Shown here piece after piece: positions 175 to 9,889 of a stretch of 38,498 nucleotides of DNA (its first letter is position 1; each line of letters begins with the position of its first letter). The stretch is taken from the sequence record SRR22947727_1191, one strand, 5' to 3'. The notes below the pieces were generated by a model. The model was not told where the DNA came from. It worked only from the letters and a program-made list of their open reading frames with translations, and made no database searches. The position numbers were made by a program, and so were the translations under genes.

Positions 175-321
175 ATGTTAACTTGGTACGATTATCTTAT
201 GATTGCTATGCTTTCTTACGTTATTAGTCAAGGTATAATATACAGCTTCTTCTTTGCTTTTATTGGATGGGTAGCATTTGTAAATTACATGGCTTGGAGG
301 AGAGATAATGTCATACGATGA
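175..321 (+). CDS. Small hydrophobic membrane protein (48 aa), not in ORF track
   Basis: RBS AAGGA, ATG at 175; MLTWYDYLMIAMLSYVISQGIIYSFFFAFIGWVAFVNYMAWRRDNVIR; overlaps start of next gene. Confidence 0.6.
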   Translation: MLTWYDYLMIAMLSYVISQGIIYSFFFAFIGWVAFVNYMAWRRDNVIR

Positions 322-574
322 TGAATTCGATTTTGGTTTTACTGCAGTCGATGAAACAGAATTAAAAGCTGTACAAGAAGTATCGGCAAAGGCAGAAACT
401 CTTGGTGCAAATGCATTAAATACTCAAGAAAAATTAGACCGTCTCTACAATGCCGTGATTCCCCTTCTCAATAATCTGAAGAAAAACCCAGAGAAAGAGT
501 ATATTCTTTGGCCTAATCGGATTGAGAAGGTGGAACAATTTGAAGACAAGCTTCTCCAAATTTACAAATCATAA
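308..574 (+). CDS. Hypothetical phage protein
   Basis: RBS GGAGG/GAGA; 88 aa with FDFGF N-terminus and PEKEYILWPNR motif. Confidence 0.8.
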   Translation: MSYDDEFDFGFTAVDETELKAVQEVSAKAETLGANALNTQEKLDRLYNAVIPLLNNLKKNPEKEYILWPNRIEKVEQFEDKLLQIYKS

Positions 575-4706: not shown

Positions 4707-5618
4707 ATGTCATTTGAAGCACTTAAGCGCCAACGCGGCGCAGATATTTCTAAACTCGTTCAAGCAGCAGAGGCCGTAGGAGCCGCTGGTGGTGAAAAGA
4801 AAAATTATGATGATGAACGCGTTTGGAAACCAACCGTAGACAAAGCAGGGAATGGATATGCCGTCCTTAGATTCCTACCAGCAGGTGAAGGATCAGACTT
4901 ACCGTGGGTCAGATATTGGGACCACGGATTCAAAGGACCAACCGGTCTTTGGTATATCGAGAACAGCCTTACATCTATTGGTCAACCTGATCCAGTTGGT
5001 GAACTCAACTCACGACTCTGGAATTCAGGACACGAAGAAGATAAAGAAACTGCACGAAAACAAAAGCGCCGACTCCACTATGTAGTCAATGCTCTTGTTG
5101 TAGAAGATCCATCTGCACCTCAAAATGAAGGTCGTGTAGTACTCTACAAATTCGGTAAGAAGATCTTTGATAAAATCATGGATGTTATGCAACCATCTTT
5201 TGCAGATGAAAAAGCAATTAATCCATTTGATTTCTGGGAAGGTGCAAACTTTAAGTTAAAGATTCGTCAAGTTGAAGGTTATCGCAACTATGATAAGTCT
5301 GAGTTTGCAAGTGGAACTGCTCTTTATGAGTCAGATGAATCAAAGCTAGAAAGTGTGTATAACCAACTGCACTCGTTAAGCGAGTTCACTGATCCTAAAA
5401 ACTATAAGACCTATGATGAGTTAAAAACTAAGCTAGCTCGAGTTCTAGGTGAAGAAGTTTCTATGGGTGCACCAACTATGAAACAAGAAATGCAAATGAA
5501 TGCTCCGGCTCCTCAGCCTGAATATTCAGTTGCAGAACCAATGACTGCCGCGGCAGTCAATATGGATAATGATGAAGATACTATGTCTTATTTCGCTAAG
5601 TTAGCAAACGAAGACTAA
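4707..5618 (+). CDS. gp32: Single-stranded DNA-binding protein gp32
   Basis: DERVWKP.VDKAGNGYAVLRFLP, YKFGKKIFDKI, NPFDFWEGANFKLK, NYDKSEF; acidic C-tail ending SYFAKLANED; ATG 4707 with RBS AAGGA. Confidence 0.97.
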   Translation: MSFEALKRQRGADISKLVQAAEAVGAAGGEKKNYDDERVWKPTVDKAGNGYAVLRFLPAGEGSDLPWVRYWDHGFKGPTGLWYIENSLTSIGQPDPVGELNSRLWNSGHEEDKETARKQKRRLHYVVNALVVEDPSAPQNEGRVVLYKFGKKIFDKIMDVMQPSFADEKAINPFDFWEGANFKLKIRQVEGYRNYDKSEFASGTALYESDESKLESVYNQLHSLSEFTDPKNYKTYDELKTKLARVLGEEVSMGAPTMKQEMQMNAPAPQPEYSVAEPMTAAAVNMDNDEDTMSYFAKLANED

Positions 5619-7228
5619 AGTATCATTGGTTCAGGATCAATTGTGTTAAGACTAGGACTACCTGCATAAGCAGAAGCATTAGTAGTTCTTACACTTTTAT
5701 CACTAGCATCCGTAACAGTAACAGGGGCCCCTCCGCCAGAAGCAGAGGTGGCCCCTGCTTTTAGATTATTTGCAATATCTTGATTTATTTTTTCAAGATC
5801 AGTCCCGATTGTACGTACAAATTCAAGCAGTGGCATATTCATTTGATCAGCTCTTGCTTTAAGACCTTCGTAATTATCTTTCAATCGGCTGCGCAACATT
5901 TTTTCTTGACGGTCTTCACTATACATTCTCAGATCATTGAAGTTCTGTTTGCCATACTTTACAGTCTCTGCTCTTTTAGCTAAAAATTCAGAGATTTTTT
6001 CTGATGTAGCAGCTGCTACTTTTTTTGCCGTATCTTCCATATCATTAGAGTCGAATTCACTCGACGATTCGTCAGGCATAAATGGTATTGGACCACGTTC
6101 TTTTCGATTTTCCGCGGCCATAAAGTTTTGACGGAATTTTCTAAGCTCGTCTAATTCAGTCTTTAGCACCTTCAGCCTTTGCATTTCATCGTCGCTAAAG
6201 TTTTCTCTATCAGTTAAAGCTTTTTTAGCTAATACATTTACTTCACTCTGTACTGCATCTTCCCGTGCTGCTTGTTCTGGATTTGCTGTTCTATATGCAG
6301 CCATTTCGTCACTAGTAGTAATAAGAGGGTCGAATATTTTATCTAAATAACTTTGAGATTGTTCAATTATATCTTTTAAGCTTTTTGATATTCTTTCTCC
6401 TAAGAGATCTACTTCTCTTTTAAATTCTGAATCATTTTTATATTTCTCAAGAAGTCTGGATGTTTCTAATCCTGTAGCTCCAAGAAAACCAATAATAGCT
6501 CCTGCAGGTCCACCTACAAGAAAGCCACCAGCTGTTGCAGCACCAATATTCAATCCACTTCTTACTGTTTCACCGGCTAGTTCATTTATGTCTTCATTAT
6601 CAATTGATTCTTTTACTTTCTTTCCTACTTCTTCGCTGTATCGATTTACTGCTCCTATAAATGCACCAGCAATCATACCCTTTGGACCAAAAAGAGAACC
6701 TAATCCAGCGCCAGTCATAGCATAACCAGACACATCTCCGGCTAATTTAGATCCTGTATATGTTTCAACTTGAGTTGCTACCTCATCAGCAAGAGTAATG
6801 AGAAGACCACCTATAAGTCCTCTTTTTAAAAGGCCACCGATACCTGGTCTCTTTGATTTTACGTTTGCATTTCCAGTAAATAAATTTTTAAGTACATTTA
6901 AGCCGAGCAAACCTCCTATTCCAGCCAAAGCAGATTTGCCCATATCACCTATTTCTTTAATGCCTAAGAAATCAAGTAAATTACCAAATAGGCCAGTTTC
7001 TTTTTGTACAGTAACAGGAGCATCTGCTTTAACAGCAGTCACTACGTTACTTCGTTCTTCTCGTTGTTTTTCTAAGTCATCAAGTTTCGGTTTTGCAAAA
7101 CCGACGAGTTTACGAATTCCAACCGAAGTTTCTTCTTGTAATTCTACAAGTTTATCTTGTTTAGAATCACTCTCTTCGAGTTTATCTCTTACGTCAGATA
7201 ATGTTGTTGGTCTACCTTTTACTGCCAT
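5615..7228 (-). CDS. Probable tail tape-measure / hub protein (gp29-like position)
   Basis: 537 aa, helical, with Gly/Ala-rich hydrophobic repeats (GAGLGSLFGP.G.IAGAFIG; GFLVGGPAGAIIG); follows the gp26/gp51-like genes. Confidence 0.6.
   Translation of the reverse strand: MAVKGRPTTLSDVRDKLEESDSKQDKLVELQEETSVGIRKLVGFAKPKLDDLEKQREERSNVVTAVKADAPVTVQKETGLFGNLLDFLGIKEIGDMGKSALAGIGGLLGLNVLKNLFTGNANVKSKRPGIGGLLKRGLIGGLLITLADEVATQVETYTGSKLAGDVSGYAMTGAGLGSLFGPKGMIAGAFIGAVNRYSEEVGKKVKESIDNEDINELAGETVRSGLNIGAATAGGFLVGGPAGAIIGFLGATGLETSRLLEKYKNDSEFKREVDLLGERISKSLKDIIEQSQSYLDKIFDPLITTSDEMAAYRTANPEQAAREDAVQSEVNVLAKKALTDRENFSDDEMQRLKVLKTELDELRKFRQNFMAAENRKERGPIPFMPDESSSEFDSNDMEDTAKKVAAATSEKISEFLAKRAETVKYGKQNFNDLRMYSEDRQEKMLRSRLKDNYEGLKARADQMNMPLLEFVRTIGTDLEKINQDIANNLKAGATSASGGGAPVTVTDASDKSVRTTNASAYAGSPSLNTIDPEPMIL
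5722..5763 (+). terminator. Intrinsic terminator-like hairpin after gene 32, inside the antisense CDS
   Basis: CAGGGGCC-CCTC...GAGG(T)GGCCCCTG stem followed by CTTTT. Confidence 0.6.
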
Positions 7229-7401
7229 TTGTTTCTAGCCTCAGCTTTTTCTTTTATATCTTCAAGTAACATAAAGATGTAAATTTCTCTCTCCCACGGC
7301 ATCATATAATCTATATCACTTAGAGAATAACTATAATTTTGCATCAATTGAAAATTAGTTTTATAATAATTCTCTAGGCTATCATGCGAGAGATTTAGGA
7401 A
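7219..7401 (-). CDS. gp51-like tail/baseplate assembly ORF, likely the -1 frameshift extension of the gp26-like gene
   Basis: Hand translation: FLNLSHDSLENYYKTNFQLMQNYSYSLSDIDYMMPWEREIYIFMLLEDIKEKAEARNKWQ*. First ATG is at 7344, inside the conserved motif. Not in ORF track. Confidence 0.75.
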   Translation of the reverse strand, partial: FLNLSHDSLENYYKTNFQLMQNYSYSLSDIDYMMPWEREIYIFMLLEDIKEKAEARNKWQ

Positions 7402-8114
7402 AAAAAATCGTCTAAGCCCTCCAAGACTTTTTTGGTTGTCTCACCACATGAGCTACATGTGTAATCTAGTTCATATTTTAATTTAGGAATGTTTTCAAGG
7501 AAAGAATTGATTTCCTTAAACTGACTATTATTTAATGAATTAATAAACGCTTCTACTTCAGCTCTTGGTTCATCGCACATCATAATGTTTTCTTCTTCTG
7601 TCATTACAGATTCCATTGACATCATCAATGTTTCATACATAATTTCAGCTGCGGTGCTTTCATCAGATATAATCACAGGGTTGTTAATAATTTCAAAATA
7701 AGAAGGATACCTCATTTGTATTGATATATCTTCTGATATACTTACAACATTATTTGTATTTGGTACATAATTAAACGATGCTTTTTCTAAGTCAACTTCA
7801 ACCTCTGTAGAATCTGAGCAGCTACTACAAATAGCATTTATCTTTGTTTTTTCACCTACAGACTTAGATCTAATTTGTGTAAACATGTAGTCTACATCAA
7901 AAGTAGATAGTTTTTTGACATCAATAGGATCATGTACACAAGATTCGATAGTGTTAAGCATTGCTGTTAGAATCTGCTGTTTATCTTGTGATTCATATGC
8001 AATAAGTAGAATTTTTTGCTCTTTAACTAGGAATGGCCTGAATTTTACTTTCTGGTCAGTCGAAGGGATATTTAATTCATACTGTGGAATATCATTCAAT
8101 TTAGGCAGTGCCAT
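7395..8114 (-). CDS. gp26: Baseplate hub assembly protein, gp26-like
   Basis: MALPKL...YELNIPS...VKFRPFLVKEQKILL, IRSKSVGE, two CxxC motifs, C-terminal LEGLDDFF. Confidence 0.85.
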   Translation of the reverse strand: MALPKLNDIPQYELNIPSTDQKVKFRPFLVKEQKILLIAYESQDKQQILTAMLNTIESCVHDPIDVKKLSTFDVDYMFTQIRSKSVGEKTKINAICSSCSDSTEVEVDLEKASFNYVPNTNNVVSISEDISIQMRYPSYFEIINNPVIISDESTAAEIMYETLMMSMESVMTEEENIMMCDEPRAEVEAFINSLNNSQFKEINSFLENIPKLKYELDYTCSSCGETTKKVLEGLDDFFS

Positions 8115-8129
8115 TATAAACTCCTTATA

Positions 8130-8795
8130 TTATGAAAATACGCTATTTAAGCCGCCAAACGCTTGTACAATACCGAGAGGACCGCCAGTACGAGTGGTCC
8201 AATTTGTATATGATAATTCAACGGAAACCTGTACTAGGCCGTCAAGTTCATTGTTTAGTTCAACTGCATTGATTGTTGTAGGAAAGGCATCGATTAGTTC
8301 TACAGAATAAATTGTAGATCCACCGATTCCTAGGTTAAGATCTATAGGACCAATATCTACTCCTAGATTAAATATTGGTTTTCTTAATTGGTGAATTTTT
8401 ACCGGTCTGACGTATTCGGCTTTATATGCTGGCTTATGTGTTTCTTCATCAATAATTCTGCTTTTCCATGAGTCAAAATATTTTCTAATACCATAGTCAT
8501 TTAGTGCATAAAATGTGAGTGATACATCTTGTACAGCATATCCGTATGCTACTTTTTGAAACTCCATTCCAATACGTCTATCAGAAGTTAAAATTTGCTT
8601 ACCTGGTAAAACGGCTTGAGCACAAAGAAGATTAAGATCTCCTCCGCCAAGAGTTCCTCCAGTTAATACGCTTGTTAGCTGACTTAGAAATCCTCCACCA
8701 GAGAATTCAGTAGGAAGATTAACTAAGAATTGGTTAGAGCGCGCAAATCCTAATTTGCTTGTAGCTAAAGATTTAAGCTGATCAATACTAGACAT
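8130..8795 (-). CDS. Tail tube-fold protein (gp54/gp19-like tube initiator)
   Basis: G.ARSNQF.V, LPG...T, FDSW...I, L.DAFPT.I....L, V.V.LSY..W tail-tube motifs. Confidence 0.7.
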   Translation of the reverse strand: MSSIDQLKSLATSKLGFARSNQFLVNLPTEFSGGGFLSQLTSVLTGGTLGGGDLNLLCAQAVLPGKQILTSDRRIGMEFQKVAYGYAVQDVSLTFYALNDYGIRKYFDSWKSRIIDEETHKPAYKAEYVRPVKIHQLRKPIFNLGVDIGPIDLNLGIGGSTIYSVELIDAFPTTINAVELNNELDGLVQVSVELSYTNWTTRTGGPLGIVQAFGGLNSVFS

Positions 8796-9388: not shown

Positions 9389-9889
9389 TTATTTATATGA
9401 TTTTTTAGACTTTTTGCGATAAGGTTTTAAAGGTTTCATCGGTTTTAATTTACCAGTTTCTTTTGCCATTATTCCCATAGATTGTAATGTTTTCTCTGTC
9501 CAGATCTGAAACTCCCAACCTCTATCCTTTGCATAATTATTTGCTGCTTCCCACTTATTCATATTCTTTACATATGTCAATGCTTCACTAATATATTTTT
9601 TAGTCTTGCGACCTCCAGTTGGAGGTGAGGTTTCTTTTTCTGGCTTTATCTCTACAAGCAATATTTTATCTTCAAATATTATTTTTACATCTACAAAATA
9701 ACGATGATATTTTTTATCAACTTCATAATAGTATGGAACAACCACCTCTTCTGAGCTCCAGTATTTTACACTTGGATTTTTATCACACCACATAAAAACA
9801 TATTTTTCCCACATAGAGCGATAAACGACCTTGTCTGGATCGCCTTTATACTTTTTTATCTTTGGTTTATACTTACCGGAATACGCCAT
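9389..9889 (-). CDS. gp4: Head completion nuclease gp4 (TnsA-like)
   Basis: MAYSGKY.P...KYKGD...VYRSMWE, WSSEE..VPY, HRYFVD, LVEIKP, N..KW.AA. Confidence 0.93.
   Translation of the reverse strand: MAYSGKYKPKIKKYKGDPDKVVYRSMWEKYVFMWCDKNPSVKYWSSEEVVVPYYYEVDKKYHRYFVDVKIIFEDKILLVEIKPEKETSPPTGGRKTKKYISEALTYVKNMNKWEAANNYAKDRGWEFQIWTEKTLQSMGIMAKETGKLKPMKPLKPYRKKSKKSYK
9390..9397 (-). promoter_or_regulatory. Late promoter for gene 2 (predicts a leaderless mRNA)
   Basis: TATAAATA on the minus strand, 5 nt before the gp2 ATG. Confidence 0.7.

Follow-up and report, generated by a model that had tools for sequence, protein, structure and literature searches.

The closest described systems are the frameshifted chaperone genes of lambda, P2 and T4-like phages. 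The gpG protein of lambda has about 140 aa, and the slip site of its gene is G_GGA_AAG. According to the part of the review by Atkins et al. (2016, PMC5009743) that deals with gpG and gpGT, their gene directly precedes that of the tape measure and neither product is found in the virion; both are likewise expected at the locus described below. In P2, which has a contractile tail, the chaperone frameshift of E/E+E' is a −1 slip on a T run, TTTTTTG, for which the relevant section of PMC3091744 reports no downstream structure. Table 2 of Leiman et al. (2010, PMC3004832) gives gp26 and gp51 of T4 as hub assembly chaperones, and the passage of that review on gp51 describes it as needed for assembly and absent from the particle. 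The gp51 of cyanophages has approximately 20% of the length of its T4 namesake (Sullivan et al. 2010).

In the passages where they cite it, two papers (PMC10885494 and PMC12846349) credit Vladimirov, Gautam and Davidson (2022, Virology 566:9) with the chaperone pair of T4-like phages and its poly-T signal. The same passages attribute to this work that poly-T is the −1 frameshift signal in TAC-N genes of T4-like phages and that, in some of these phages, a short chaperone gene and a longer fused one take the place of the frameshift. In the open full-text literature, only papers citing Vladimirov et al. (2022) were found, and no paper itself describing the gp26/gp51 frameshift. The gp26/gp51 frameshift is a real feature that is already known, and the locus analysed here is a new uncultured example of it; the high novelty assigned to it by the initial annotation was not borne out, because the idea is in print (Vladimirov et al. 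2022, via the citing papers). With it, T4-like phages join the other long-tailed phages, in which a chaperone frameshift is near-universal. In practice, current annotation is nevertheless wrong: the two ORFs are not joined in any of the nine annotated non-T4-type GenBank records examined, which carry either a "baseplate hub assembly catalyst" of 30 to 59 codons or nothing. The gain is better annotation and one more well-documented example, not a discovery.

The window, i.e., the whole stretch of DNA that was analysed (38,498 nt, sequence record SRR22947727_1191), comes from an uncultured marine T4-like phage, which very probably uses a one-base backward slip on a T run to make a short and a long tail assembly chaperone from a single gene. 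The genes and the slip site are as follows.

8130..8795, minus strand: upstream tail-tube-like gene, 221 aa (phrog_45 "tail tube", E 2.1e-28)
7395..8114, minus strand: gp26-like gene, short tail assembly chaperone form (TAC-N), 239 aa (ORF, PF12322 and phrog_150)
7401-7407, minus strand: slippery heptamer T_TTT_TTT, part of the T8 run at 7400-7407 (sequence)
7395-7397, minus strand: zero-frame stop TAA, one codon past the heptamer
7219..7401, minus strand: −1 frame extension, gp51-like C-terminal module (TAC-C), 60 aa and stop (phrog_634, phrog_150 and alignment to T4 gp51)
5615..7228, minus strand: downstream ORF, candidate tape measure, 537 aa (ORF and position after the extension)

The gp26-like protein matched PF12322 (T4_baseplate) with an E value of 4.7e-54 and 183.8 bits (cut-off, 24.5). 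Its residues 10-238 were aligned with positions 2-218 of the 219 profile positions, so that the gathering cut-off was passed and the whole domain was covered, and positions 5-232 of the 282 positions of phrog_150 were also matched. A megablast search of the locus against GenBank phages gave no match. Related records label the upstream neighbour either tail tube or baseplate tail tube initiator. The 537-aa protein encoded downstream matched no Pfam or PHROG family, and hhalign of its profile against T4 gp29 indicated no relation (probability 0.7%). An ORF of 444-611 aa starts −26 to +9 nt from the extension stop in 55 loci of the window clade, and the positional equivalents in two of six other phages matched a tape-measure PHROG.

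On the minus strand, the gp26-like gene ends with ...GGC TTA GAC GAT TTT TTT TCC TAA, and the run of eight T at 7400-7407 with the T_TTT_TTT heptamer noticed by the initial annotation was found at this end. This T8 is the sole intragenic A/T run of at least 8 in the 38.5-kb window, the other being a single A9 in an intergenic spacer. From the codon at 7399-7401, the −1 frame reads FLNLSHDSLENYYKTNFQLMQ...WQ* over 60 aa to the stop at 7219-7221, and the ATG at 7226-7228, where the next ORF starts, lies within the end of this extension. The length of 60 codons and the overlap with the start of the tape-measure candidate were thus as originally described, as was the size of the fusion (approximately 298 aa), a predicted long product computed from the frame as 238 + 60 = 298 aa. 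On the other hand, the statement that the −1 frame opens exactly at the T run was wrong, since it is already open 13 codons further upstream. The junction peptide is predicted to be ...LEGLDDFFFLNLSHD..., with the break written as ...DDFFF-LNLSHDSLENYYK. The −1 peptide matched phrog_634 (E 3.9e-21) and positions 236-282 of phrog_150, and a tblastn search with the extension found 544 phage records, 533 of which covered at least 80% of the query.

T4 gp26 (208 aa) and gp51 (249 aa) both match PF12322, the family of the window protein. T4 gp26 is PF12322 alone, and T4 gp51 is PF12322 (residues 1-201) followed by an extension (residues 202-249) to which the −1 peptide of the window is homologous (BLASTP, E 2e-5). 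An hhalign comparison of the window clade with T4-type gp51 gave a probability of 97.3%, and the alignment ended exactly at ..DFF. As judged from these alignments, T4 gp26 (short) and gp51 (long) are paralogs, and therefore the window would make from one gene what T4 makes from two. In T4 and Proteus phage PM2, the same two parts are fused in frame, and the two paralogous genes are divergently transcribed, gene 51 being separated from the tape measure gene 29 by genes 27 and 28, whereas the window has one gene with a −1 extension directly before the candidate tape measure. Phages with a fused gp51 also retain a separate short gp26; therefore, both forms appear to be needed. The suggestion that the small "gp51" of marine T4-like phages is a frameshift extension was supported and accounts for the length reported by Sullivan et al. 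(2010): the marine "gp51" would be only about a fifth as long as that of T4 because the small ORF is the extension.

In order to describe conservation, a set of 172 sequences (171 loci and the window) was used, in 170 of which the C-terminal part of gp26 was matched. An in-phase T_TTT_TTN followed by a gp51-like segment in the −1 frame was present in 169 of these 170 loci; the last one extends beyond the end of its contig. The 169 loci are not independent of each other, as 160 belong to two clades that were chosen for their similarity. An in-phase T run and the −1 relation, whose constancy among homologs the initial annotation had proposed to check, were thus present in 169/169 readable relatives. 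The taxa covered were Kyanoviridae, Pelagibacter phage, Vibrio phage, Sinorhizobium phage, Pseudomonas Otagovirus, Pootjesviridae Rhizobium phage and Desulfovibrio phage; the Vibrio query in the related-locus search gave one weak locus only. The heptamer was TTTTTTC in 85, TTTTTTT in 83 and TTTTTTG in one of the 169 loci, the −1 ORF was 57-65 aa long, and the zero-frame stop followed the heptamer after 0 codons (80 loci), 1 codon (87), 2 codons (1) or 8 codons (1). The run was only T6 in 86 of the 169 loci and T8 in the window and 82 loci, and two close relatives (94% and 89% identity) had a T8 and frame identical to those of the window. Among 128 unique junctions, the first Phe codon was always TTT (background, 0.71) and never the first TTC of a TTC TTC pair, and the codon before the heptamer was GAT, AAT, TCT or AGT, T-ending in every case (background, 0.73 for GAT and 0.73 for AAT).

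Three further elements flank the slip site in the window.

7417..7422, minus strand: Shine-Dalgarno (SD)-like GGAGGG, the GGAGG core of which ends 10 nt upstream of the heptamer
7383..7393, minus strand: 5' arm of a predicted long-range stem, starting 7 nt after the heptamer, in the conserved LSH codons
7288..7298, minus strand: 3' arm of the predicted long-range stem, within the PWERE codons of the extension

The predicted pairing of GGAGGG to the anti-SD sequence was −9.8 kcal/mol, and an SD-like score of −4 or lower was found at the same place in 66% of 128 unique relatives, compared with 9% of background windows, which suggests that this element may be stimulatory. The stem 7383-7393/7288-7298 has 10 bp and a predicted energy of −16.2 kcal/mol, a strength equalled at 0.7% of 1500 control positions. 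RNAalifold recovered the same stem from 26 non-redundant sequences of the window clade, and no structure common to all clades from 43 sequences. The Leu codon in the 5' arm was CTC in 122 of 128 junctions (background share, 0.07), and GAG was favoured in the codon choice of the arms (background, 0.25). In Vibrio phage D479, both arms are changed and the pairing is still 10 bp. Stems start 7-8 nt downstream in most lineages, and the one in the window would probably act as a stimulator. There was little covariation of the stems within a clade, and amino-acid conservation could partly account for them.

The −1 frameshift of E. coli dnaX has an SD-like element approximately 10 nt upstream, the heptamer A_AAA_AAG and a downstream stem. 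The window resembles dnaX in this three-part signal, although gene and heptamer differ, so that dnaX is used as a working analogy only. We tentatively suggest that the three-part signal is partly built into the extension's own codons (the LSH and PWER arms) and that other lineages have swapped the stem for a local hairpin. If this is true, and if the 2022 paper does not describe it, it would be a new example in which a protein motif also serves as the stimulator of its own recoding. The P2 site TTTTTTG is exactly that of Rhizobium phage RHph_I1_9; however, gpE proteins of P2 are unrelated in sequence to those studied here, and in most lineages a strong pairing partner lies at the above distance downstream of the run, in contrast to P2.

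It is likely that the two chaperone forms are produced from one gene by ribosomal −1 frameshifting at T_TTT_TTT. Most ribosomes would read 8114..7395 to the stop and produce the 239-aa short form, the counterpart of T4 gp26. A minority would slip back one base on T_TTT_TTT (7401-7407), with the Phe-tRNAs re-pairing in the −1 frame, and would read 60 more codons to 7219, producing the 298-aa long form, the counterpart of T4 gp51. The slip is likely to be stimulated by GGAGGG, 10 nt ahead of the heptamer, by the zero-frame stop that follows one codon after it and by the stem beginning 7 nt downstream. The analogy with lambda gpG/gpGT predicts that the domain common to both forms holds the tape-measure-like product of the following gene and that the additional C-terminal helices bring in a further component of the tail or hub; neither form would be expected in the finished virion. 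We infer from sequence features and from this analogy that the slip occurs, that it is ribosomal, how efficient it is and what the products bind.

The same long form would arise if RNA polymerase stuttered on T8 and an extra U were inserted in some transcripts. T8, present in the window and in 82/169 loci, is of a length at which some RNA polymerase slippage can occur, and it is the only run of its kind within a gene of the window; moreover, the run is extended by the T that invariably precedes the Phe codons. However, in 86/169 loci there is only T6, interrupted by C or G, which is short for bacterial RNA polymerase, whose programmed slippage runs have roughly 8-9 or more residues. In addition, no enriched hairpin was found just upstream of the run (mean, −2.3 kcal/mol versus a background of −3.0 kcal/mol), and the SD-like and downstream-stem features lie at spacings typical of ribosomal −1 frameshifting. 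A ribosomal slip is favoured because half of the relatives have only T6 and because SD-like and stem elements flank the site, and transcriptional slippage is considered unlikely.

Far less probable is that there is no recoding and that the small ORF is a gene in its own right, with ribosomes starting at an internal TTG/ATG (7342-7347) or re-initiating after termination of gp26. The separate 30- to 59-codon genes annotated in GenBank records are what this would predict, and in two phages an ATG lies close to where the conserved block begins. One is RHph_I1_9, whose ATG overlaps the stop (TGATG) right at the block and which could use translational coupling instead; the other is Sinorhizobium phage phiM19. 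However, the first start codons in the −1 frame of the window are TTG ATG at extension codons 19-20 (7342-7347), with no ATG, GTG or TTG earlier, in agreement with the original remark that no start precedes the conserved block, and no SD-like sequence is visible ahead of the internal ATG. A scan of the −1 frame for ATG, GTG or TTG, beginning at the preceding stop in that frame and ending at extension codon 8, found none in 137/169 loci; a start for the small ORF is thus not conserved. The position of the first ATG varied between codons 3 and 33 among the 128 junctions (codon 19 or 20 in 84, codon 33 in 23, and other places in the rest). The 19 codons before the window's first ATG are conserved with a coding pattern. 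Upstream of the first ATG, where the initial annotation had proposed to look for amino-acid conservation, the entropy by codon position was 0.70/0.60/1.25, and L4, H6, L9, Y12, N16 and F17 of the extension were 92-98% conserved. The codon pattern thus indicates that the pre-start part of the extension is under protein-level selection. Furthermore, the homologous segment occurs in T4 and PM2 only as the C-terminus of a PF12322 protein.

A homopolymer error or a recent frameshift mutation that split one fused gene is extremely improbable: homopolymer runs are error-prone and T4-type phages carry the fused form as a single gene, but the frame offset was identical in 169/169 assemblies and isolates, contigs of two other studies (covering 7338-7501 and 7224-8039) cross the T run without an indel, and phages with a fused gp51 keep the short gene as well. 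The homopolymer error that had been named for checking was thereby excluded, and a single fused ORF was absent from these independent DNA contigs. Contigs from two RNA runs covered 7459-7718, 7923-8054 and 8048-8300, all outside the junction.

The predicted fold of the shared part may likewise be that of a tail assembly chaperone. Neither Foldseek against the PDB at E ≤ 0.001, using the model of the gp26-like protein, nor a profile search of PDB sequences gave a meaningful match. The AF2 model (pLDDT 86.9) was compared with 48,161 chains, and the best four were 3fgx, 2ob9 (HK97 TAC), 3klu and 5ir0, with Z scores of 7.3, 7.1, 6.7 and 5.1, respectively, where a Z of approximately 7 falls in the range rated common by the comparison tool; the fifth chain had a Z of 4.3. 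The chaperone matches align 85-86 residues of the shared N-terminal domain, and all four are called TACs in the literature passages on them. The analogy with lambda G/GT drawn by the initial annotation thus gains support from the short/long paralogy of T4 gp26 and gp51 and from the best matches of the N-terminal domain, which are solved tail assembly chaperones of the same kind as gpG/gpGT. There is, however, no detectable sequence similarity between the lambda proteins and the window protein, whose shared part of approximately 240 aa, with two Cys-pair hairpins, and slip site T_TTT_TTT are unlike those of lambda gpG. With a model of a T4-type gp51, the N-terminal match was not repeated, and chaperones were matched only at Z 3.0-3.4 over residues 103-175 or 103-197. 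The weak matches on residues 103-175 of this model hint at an internal duplication in PF12322.

The gp26/gp51 junction of the window is a real and strictly conserved feature with a convincing explanation, a probable -1 frameshift. It is known already, through papers citing Vladimirov, Gautam and Davidson (2022, Virology 566:9); a full-text literature search found no open paper that itself describes it. The features at the junction are as follows.

8114..7395, minus strand: gp26-like ORF, 239 aa, with the 3' end ...GGC TTA GAC GAT TTT TTT TCC TAA
7400-7407, minus strand: T8 run
7401-7407, minus strand: in-phase heptamer T_TTT_TTT
TAA at 7219-7221, minus strand: end of the -1 extension, 60 codons read after a -1 slip and starting TTC CTA AAT CTC TCG CAT...
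ATG at 7226-7228, minus strand: start of the 537-aa ORF, overlapped by the -1 extension

The fusion of about 298 aa proposed in the initial annotation was recomputed as 238 + 60 = 298 aa; the -1 frame, described there as open from exactly the junction, is actually open from 13 codons upstream. A homopolymer error at T8, for which a check had been proposed, is excluded because the same run and frame occur in two close relatives (94% and 89% identity), DNA contigs of two other studies span the run without an indel, and 13 DNA runs of marine or seawater origin, from 10 studies, contain the stretch. Apart from T8, the window has just one A or T run of at least 8, an A9 run at 573-581, which begins in the stop codon of the ORF 308..574 and sits in an intergenic spacer. 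At 7219-7228, the extension stop overlaps with the start codon of the 537-aa ORF (ATGGCAGTAA). Frameshifted ribosomes would therefore terminate inside the start of the next gene, and the overlap could couple translation of the extension and the 537-aa ORF.

A tblastn search with the 59-aa -1 peptide matched 544 GenBank phage records, 533 of which span at least 80% of the query, including the region before the window's first ATG. Ten annotated GenBank loci and 161 IMG/VR loci, the latter found via gp26 protein queries, were compared with the window. The gp26 C-terminus was matched in 170 of these 172 sequences, the exceptions being PM2, a T4-type locus, and a single weak hit that is Vibrio-like. 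An in-phase T_TTT_TTN was present in 169 of the 170 (TTTTTTC in 85, TTTTTTT in 83 and TTTTTTG in 1), and the remaining locus runs off its contig. The extension was in the -1 frame in 169 of 169 loci (57-65 aa where complete), a sample that is not independent because similarity was the basis for choosing the two clades that supply 160 of the loci. The remaining nine are GenBank loci from Kyanoviridae, Pelagibacter, Vibrio, Sinorhizobium, Pseudomonas, Rhizobium and Desulfovibrio phages, and all agree. The zero-frame stop follows the heptamer at 0 codons in 80 loci, at 1 codon in 87, and at 2 and 8 codons in one locus each.

In the 128 unique junctions, the heptamer was preceded by GAT (64), AAT (46), TCT (14) or AGT (4), all of which end in T, and the first Phe codon was TTT in all 128; the background frequencies of GAT, AAT and TTT in the same genes were 0.73, 0.73 and 0.71, respectively. 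This codon usage indicates constraint at synonymous sites. The 19 extension codons before the window's ATG varied mostly at the third position (entropy 0.70/0.60/1.25; 128 junctions) and include residues that reach 92-98% conservation, a pattern indicative of protein-level selection. ATG, GTG and TTG were absent from the upstream -1-frame stop through extension codon 8 in 137 of the 169 loci, and the position of the first ATG in the extension shifts between codons 3 and 33. The initial annotation had named a conserved T-run, a conserved -1 frame and conserved residues before the first ATG as what homologues should show, and a varying frame, TTC TTC codons or a conserved start of the small ORF as evidence to the contrary. 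The former were all observed, the run and frame in every one of the 169 loci, and none of the latter was found (169 loci; 128 junctions).

Ribosomal slippage is the probable mechanism, in which both tRNAs would re-pair in the -1 frame on the Phe-Phe heptamer. The P2 chaperone frameshift is described as using TTTTTTG in a passage of PMC3091744. RNA polymerase slippage on the T8 run of the window, which could support it, would yield an identical protein. However, only T6 is present in 86 of the 169 loci, and a hairpin just upstream of the run is not enriched; both weigh against transcriptional slippage as the general mechanism, and we consider it unlikely. Three accessory features, namely a Shine-Dalgarno (SD)-like element, the stop and downstream pairing, fit ribosomal slippage. 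Two of them are located in the window as follows.

GGAGG core ending 10 nt upstream of the heptamer, minus strand: SD-like GGAGGG, -9.8 kcal/mol to the anti-SD
7383-7393 with 7288-7298, minus strand: predicted stem, 10 bp with one mismatch, -16.2 kcal/mol

The SD-like position reached -4 kcal/mol or lower in 66% of the 128 junctions versus 9% of background windows, an invariant Gly codon accounting for part of this signal. The stop is located at or beside the A site, and the predicted downstream pairing starts 7-8 nt past the heptamer. Of 1500 control positions taken from the window, just 0.7% had an equally strong partner inside 150 nt, and RNAalifold recovered the same stem from 26 non-redundant window-clade sequences. 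The stem arms sit in conserved LSH and PWER codons, where codon choice is unusual: CTC encodes Leu at 122 of 128 junctions (background 0.07), and GAG is the predominant Glu codon (background 0.25). In Vibrio phage D479 both arms are changed and a 10-bp duplex is still formed. A Pelagibacter phage has a 10-bp version of the stem, the cyanophage clade has instead a local 9-bp hairpin with a 7-nt spacer, and a Pseudomonas phage has a 9-bp stem with its partner at mid-distance. The control ranks of downstream pairing were 0.1-0.9% in five lineages and 4-19% in four others. No structure common to all clades was found, and covariation within a clade was little; the downstream stems are therefore candidates rather than established elements. 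The SD-like element and these lineage-specific stems might be new.

The 239-aa protein belongs to PF12322 'T4_baseplate' (E 4.7e-54; full length) and to phrog_150 (profile positions 5-232 of 282). The 59 -1-frame residues (7398 to 7222) match phrog_634, the gp51 family annotated 'baseplate hub assembly catalyst' (E 3.9e-21), and also the C-terminal positions 236-282 of phrog_150. Therefore, some gp26-family members have the segment in frame, and these are the T4-type gp51 proteins. T4 gp51 (249 aa) consists of PF12322 on residues 1-201 (E 3.9e-52) and a tail, residues 202-249, that aligns with the window's -1 peptide (BLASTP E 2e-5). T4 gp26 (208 aa) is PF12322 alone (E 8.8e-64) and aligns with T4 gp51 (E 2e-6). 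The two T4 proteins are thus paralogues, one short and one long, and Proteus phage PM2 has the same arrangement. When the window clade and T4-type gp51 were compared profile to profile, the probability was 97.3% and the alignment stopped exactly at the ..GLDDFF / ..DIVDVF meeting point. Whereas T4 has two paralogous genes for the short and long forms, a single locus of the window appears to encode both, with a -1 offset between them. In an IMG/VR contig (L184:1501-2246), the T4-type gene 51 homologue is normal for ~118 residues and then has many stops (16 in the given frame); the gene is broken or the assembly has a frameshift.

A tube-like gene (phrog_45, E 2e-28) lies upstream. The downstream 537-aa ORF had no family match in Pfam and PHROG profile searches, and no relation to T4 gp29 could be detected for it. 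In 55 window-clade loci, an ORF of 444-611 aa begins -26 to +9 nt from the extension stop, and positional equivalents matched tape-measure PHROGs in two of six phages tested (Vibrio D479 and Sinorhizobium phiM19). A gp4-like head completion protein (phrog_218; 9389-9889, minus strand) also matches the PF08722 TnsA-like endonuclease N-terminal domain (E 4.9e-17).

The 239-aa protein was modelled with AlphaFold2 (42-sequence alignment, pLDDT 86.9), and the model was compared with 48,161 PDB representatives. The top four matches, all on residues 1-96, were 3fgx (Z 7.3), 2ob9 (the HK97 tail assembly chaperone; Z 7.1), 3klu (Z 6.7) and 5ir0 (Z 5.1), and the fifth dropped to Z 4.3; they are of the family predicted beforehand, and Z near 7 is not decisive by the tool's own notes. 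All four are called tail assembly chaperones in passages of PMC9603447 and PMC12987554. The match was not repeated with a T4-type gp51 model (8 sequences, pLDDT 84.6), for which chaperones reached just Z 3.0-3.4 on residues 103-175 or 103-197, and in which the extension forms three helices at lower confidence. In this model (of L173:1501-2247), the weak matches to 3fgx, 3klu and 5ir0 fall on the second half of PF12322, residues 103-175. Both halves have the order strand-strand, helices, Cys-hairpin, and the modelled domain may have arisen when a chaperone-like module was duplicated internally.

In the Leiman 2010 review, gp26 and gp51 are listed as hub assembly chaperones, gp51 being required yet absent from the particle. 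Lambda gpG/gpGT work alike: as outlined in PMC5009743, G binds the tape measure and T the tube protein, at a ratio of 30:1, and virions contain neither. Given this listing and the lambda parallel, we interpret the gp26/gp51-like pair as this phage's tail assembly chaperone, with binding partners that we infer by analogy.

Cyanophage gp51 was reported to be ~20% of the T4 length, with no explanation offered in that passage of Sullivan et al. (2010). A section of PMC10885494 describes a short gene plus a longer fused gene in place of the frameshift in some T4-like phages. In PMC12846349, poly-T stretches are given as -1 frameshift signals of TAC-N genes in T4-like phages. The ORFs were joined in none of nine annotated non-T4-type GenBank records examined (the Desulfovibrio record is without annotation); these either carry small genes, 30 to 59 codons long, or leave the segment blank. 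Many cyanophage genomes (L002:2501-2680 and like records: the ACG-2014 series, S-WAM1 and ACG-2014h) have no annotation over the gp51-like segment, and other cyanophage records have small ORFs of varied lengths from different internal Met codons. In Sinorhizobium phage phiM19 an ATG lies early in the extension. Rhizobium phage RHph_I1_9 (L010:2480-2560) has TTTTTTG and an ATG that overlaps the gp26 stop (TGATG) exactly where the conserved block starts; it could make the small protein by translational coupling, besides or in place of frameshifting.
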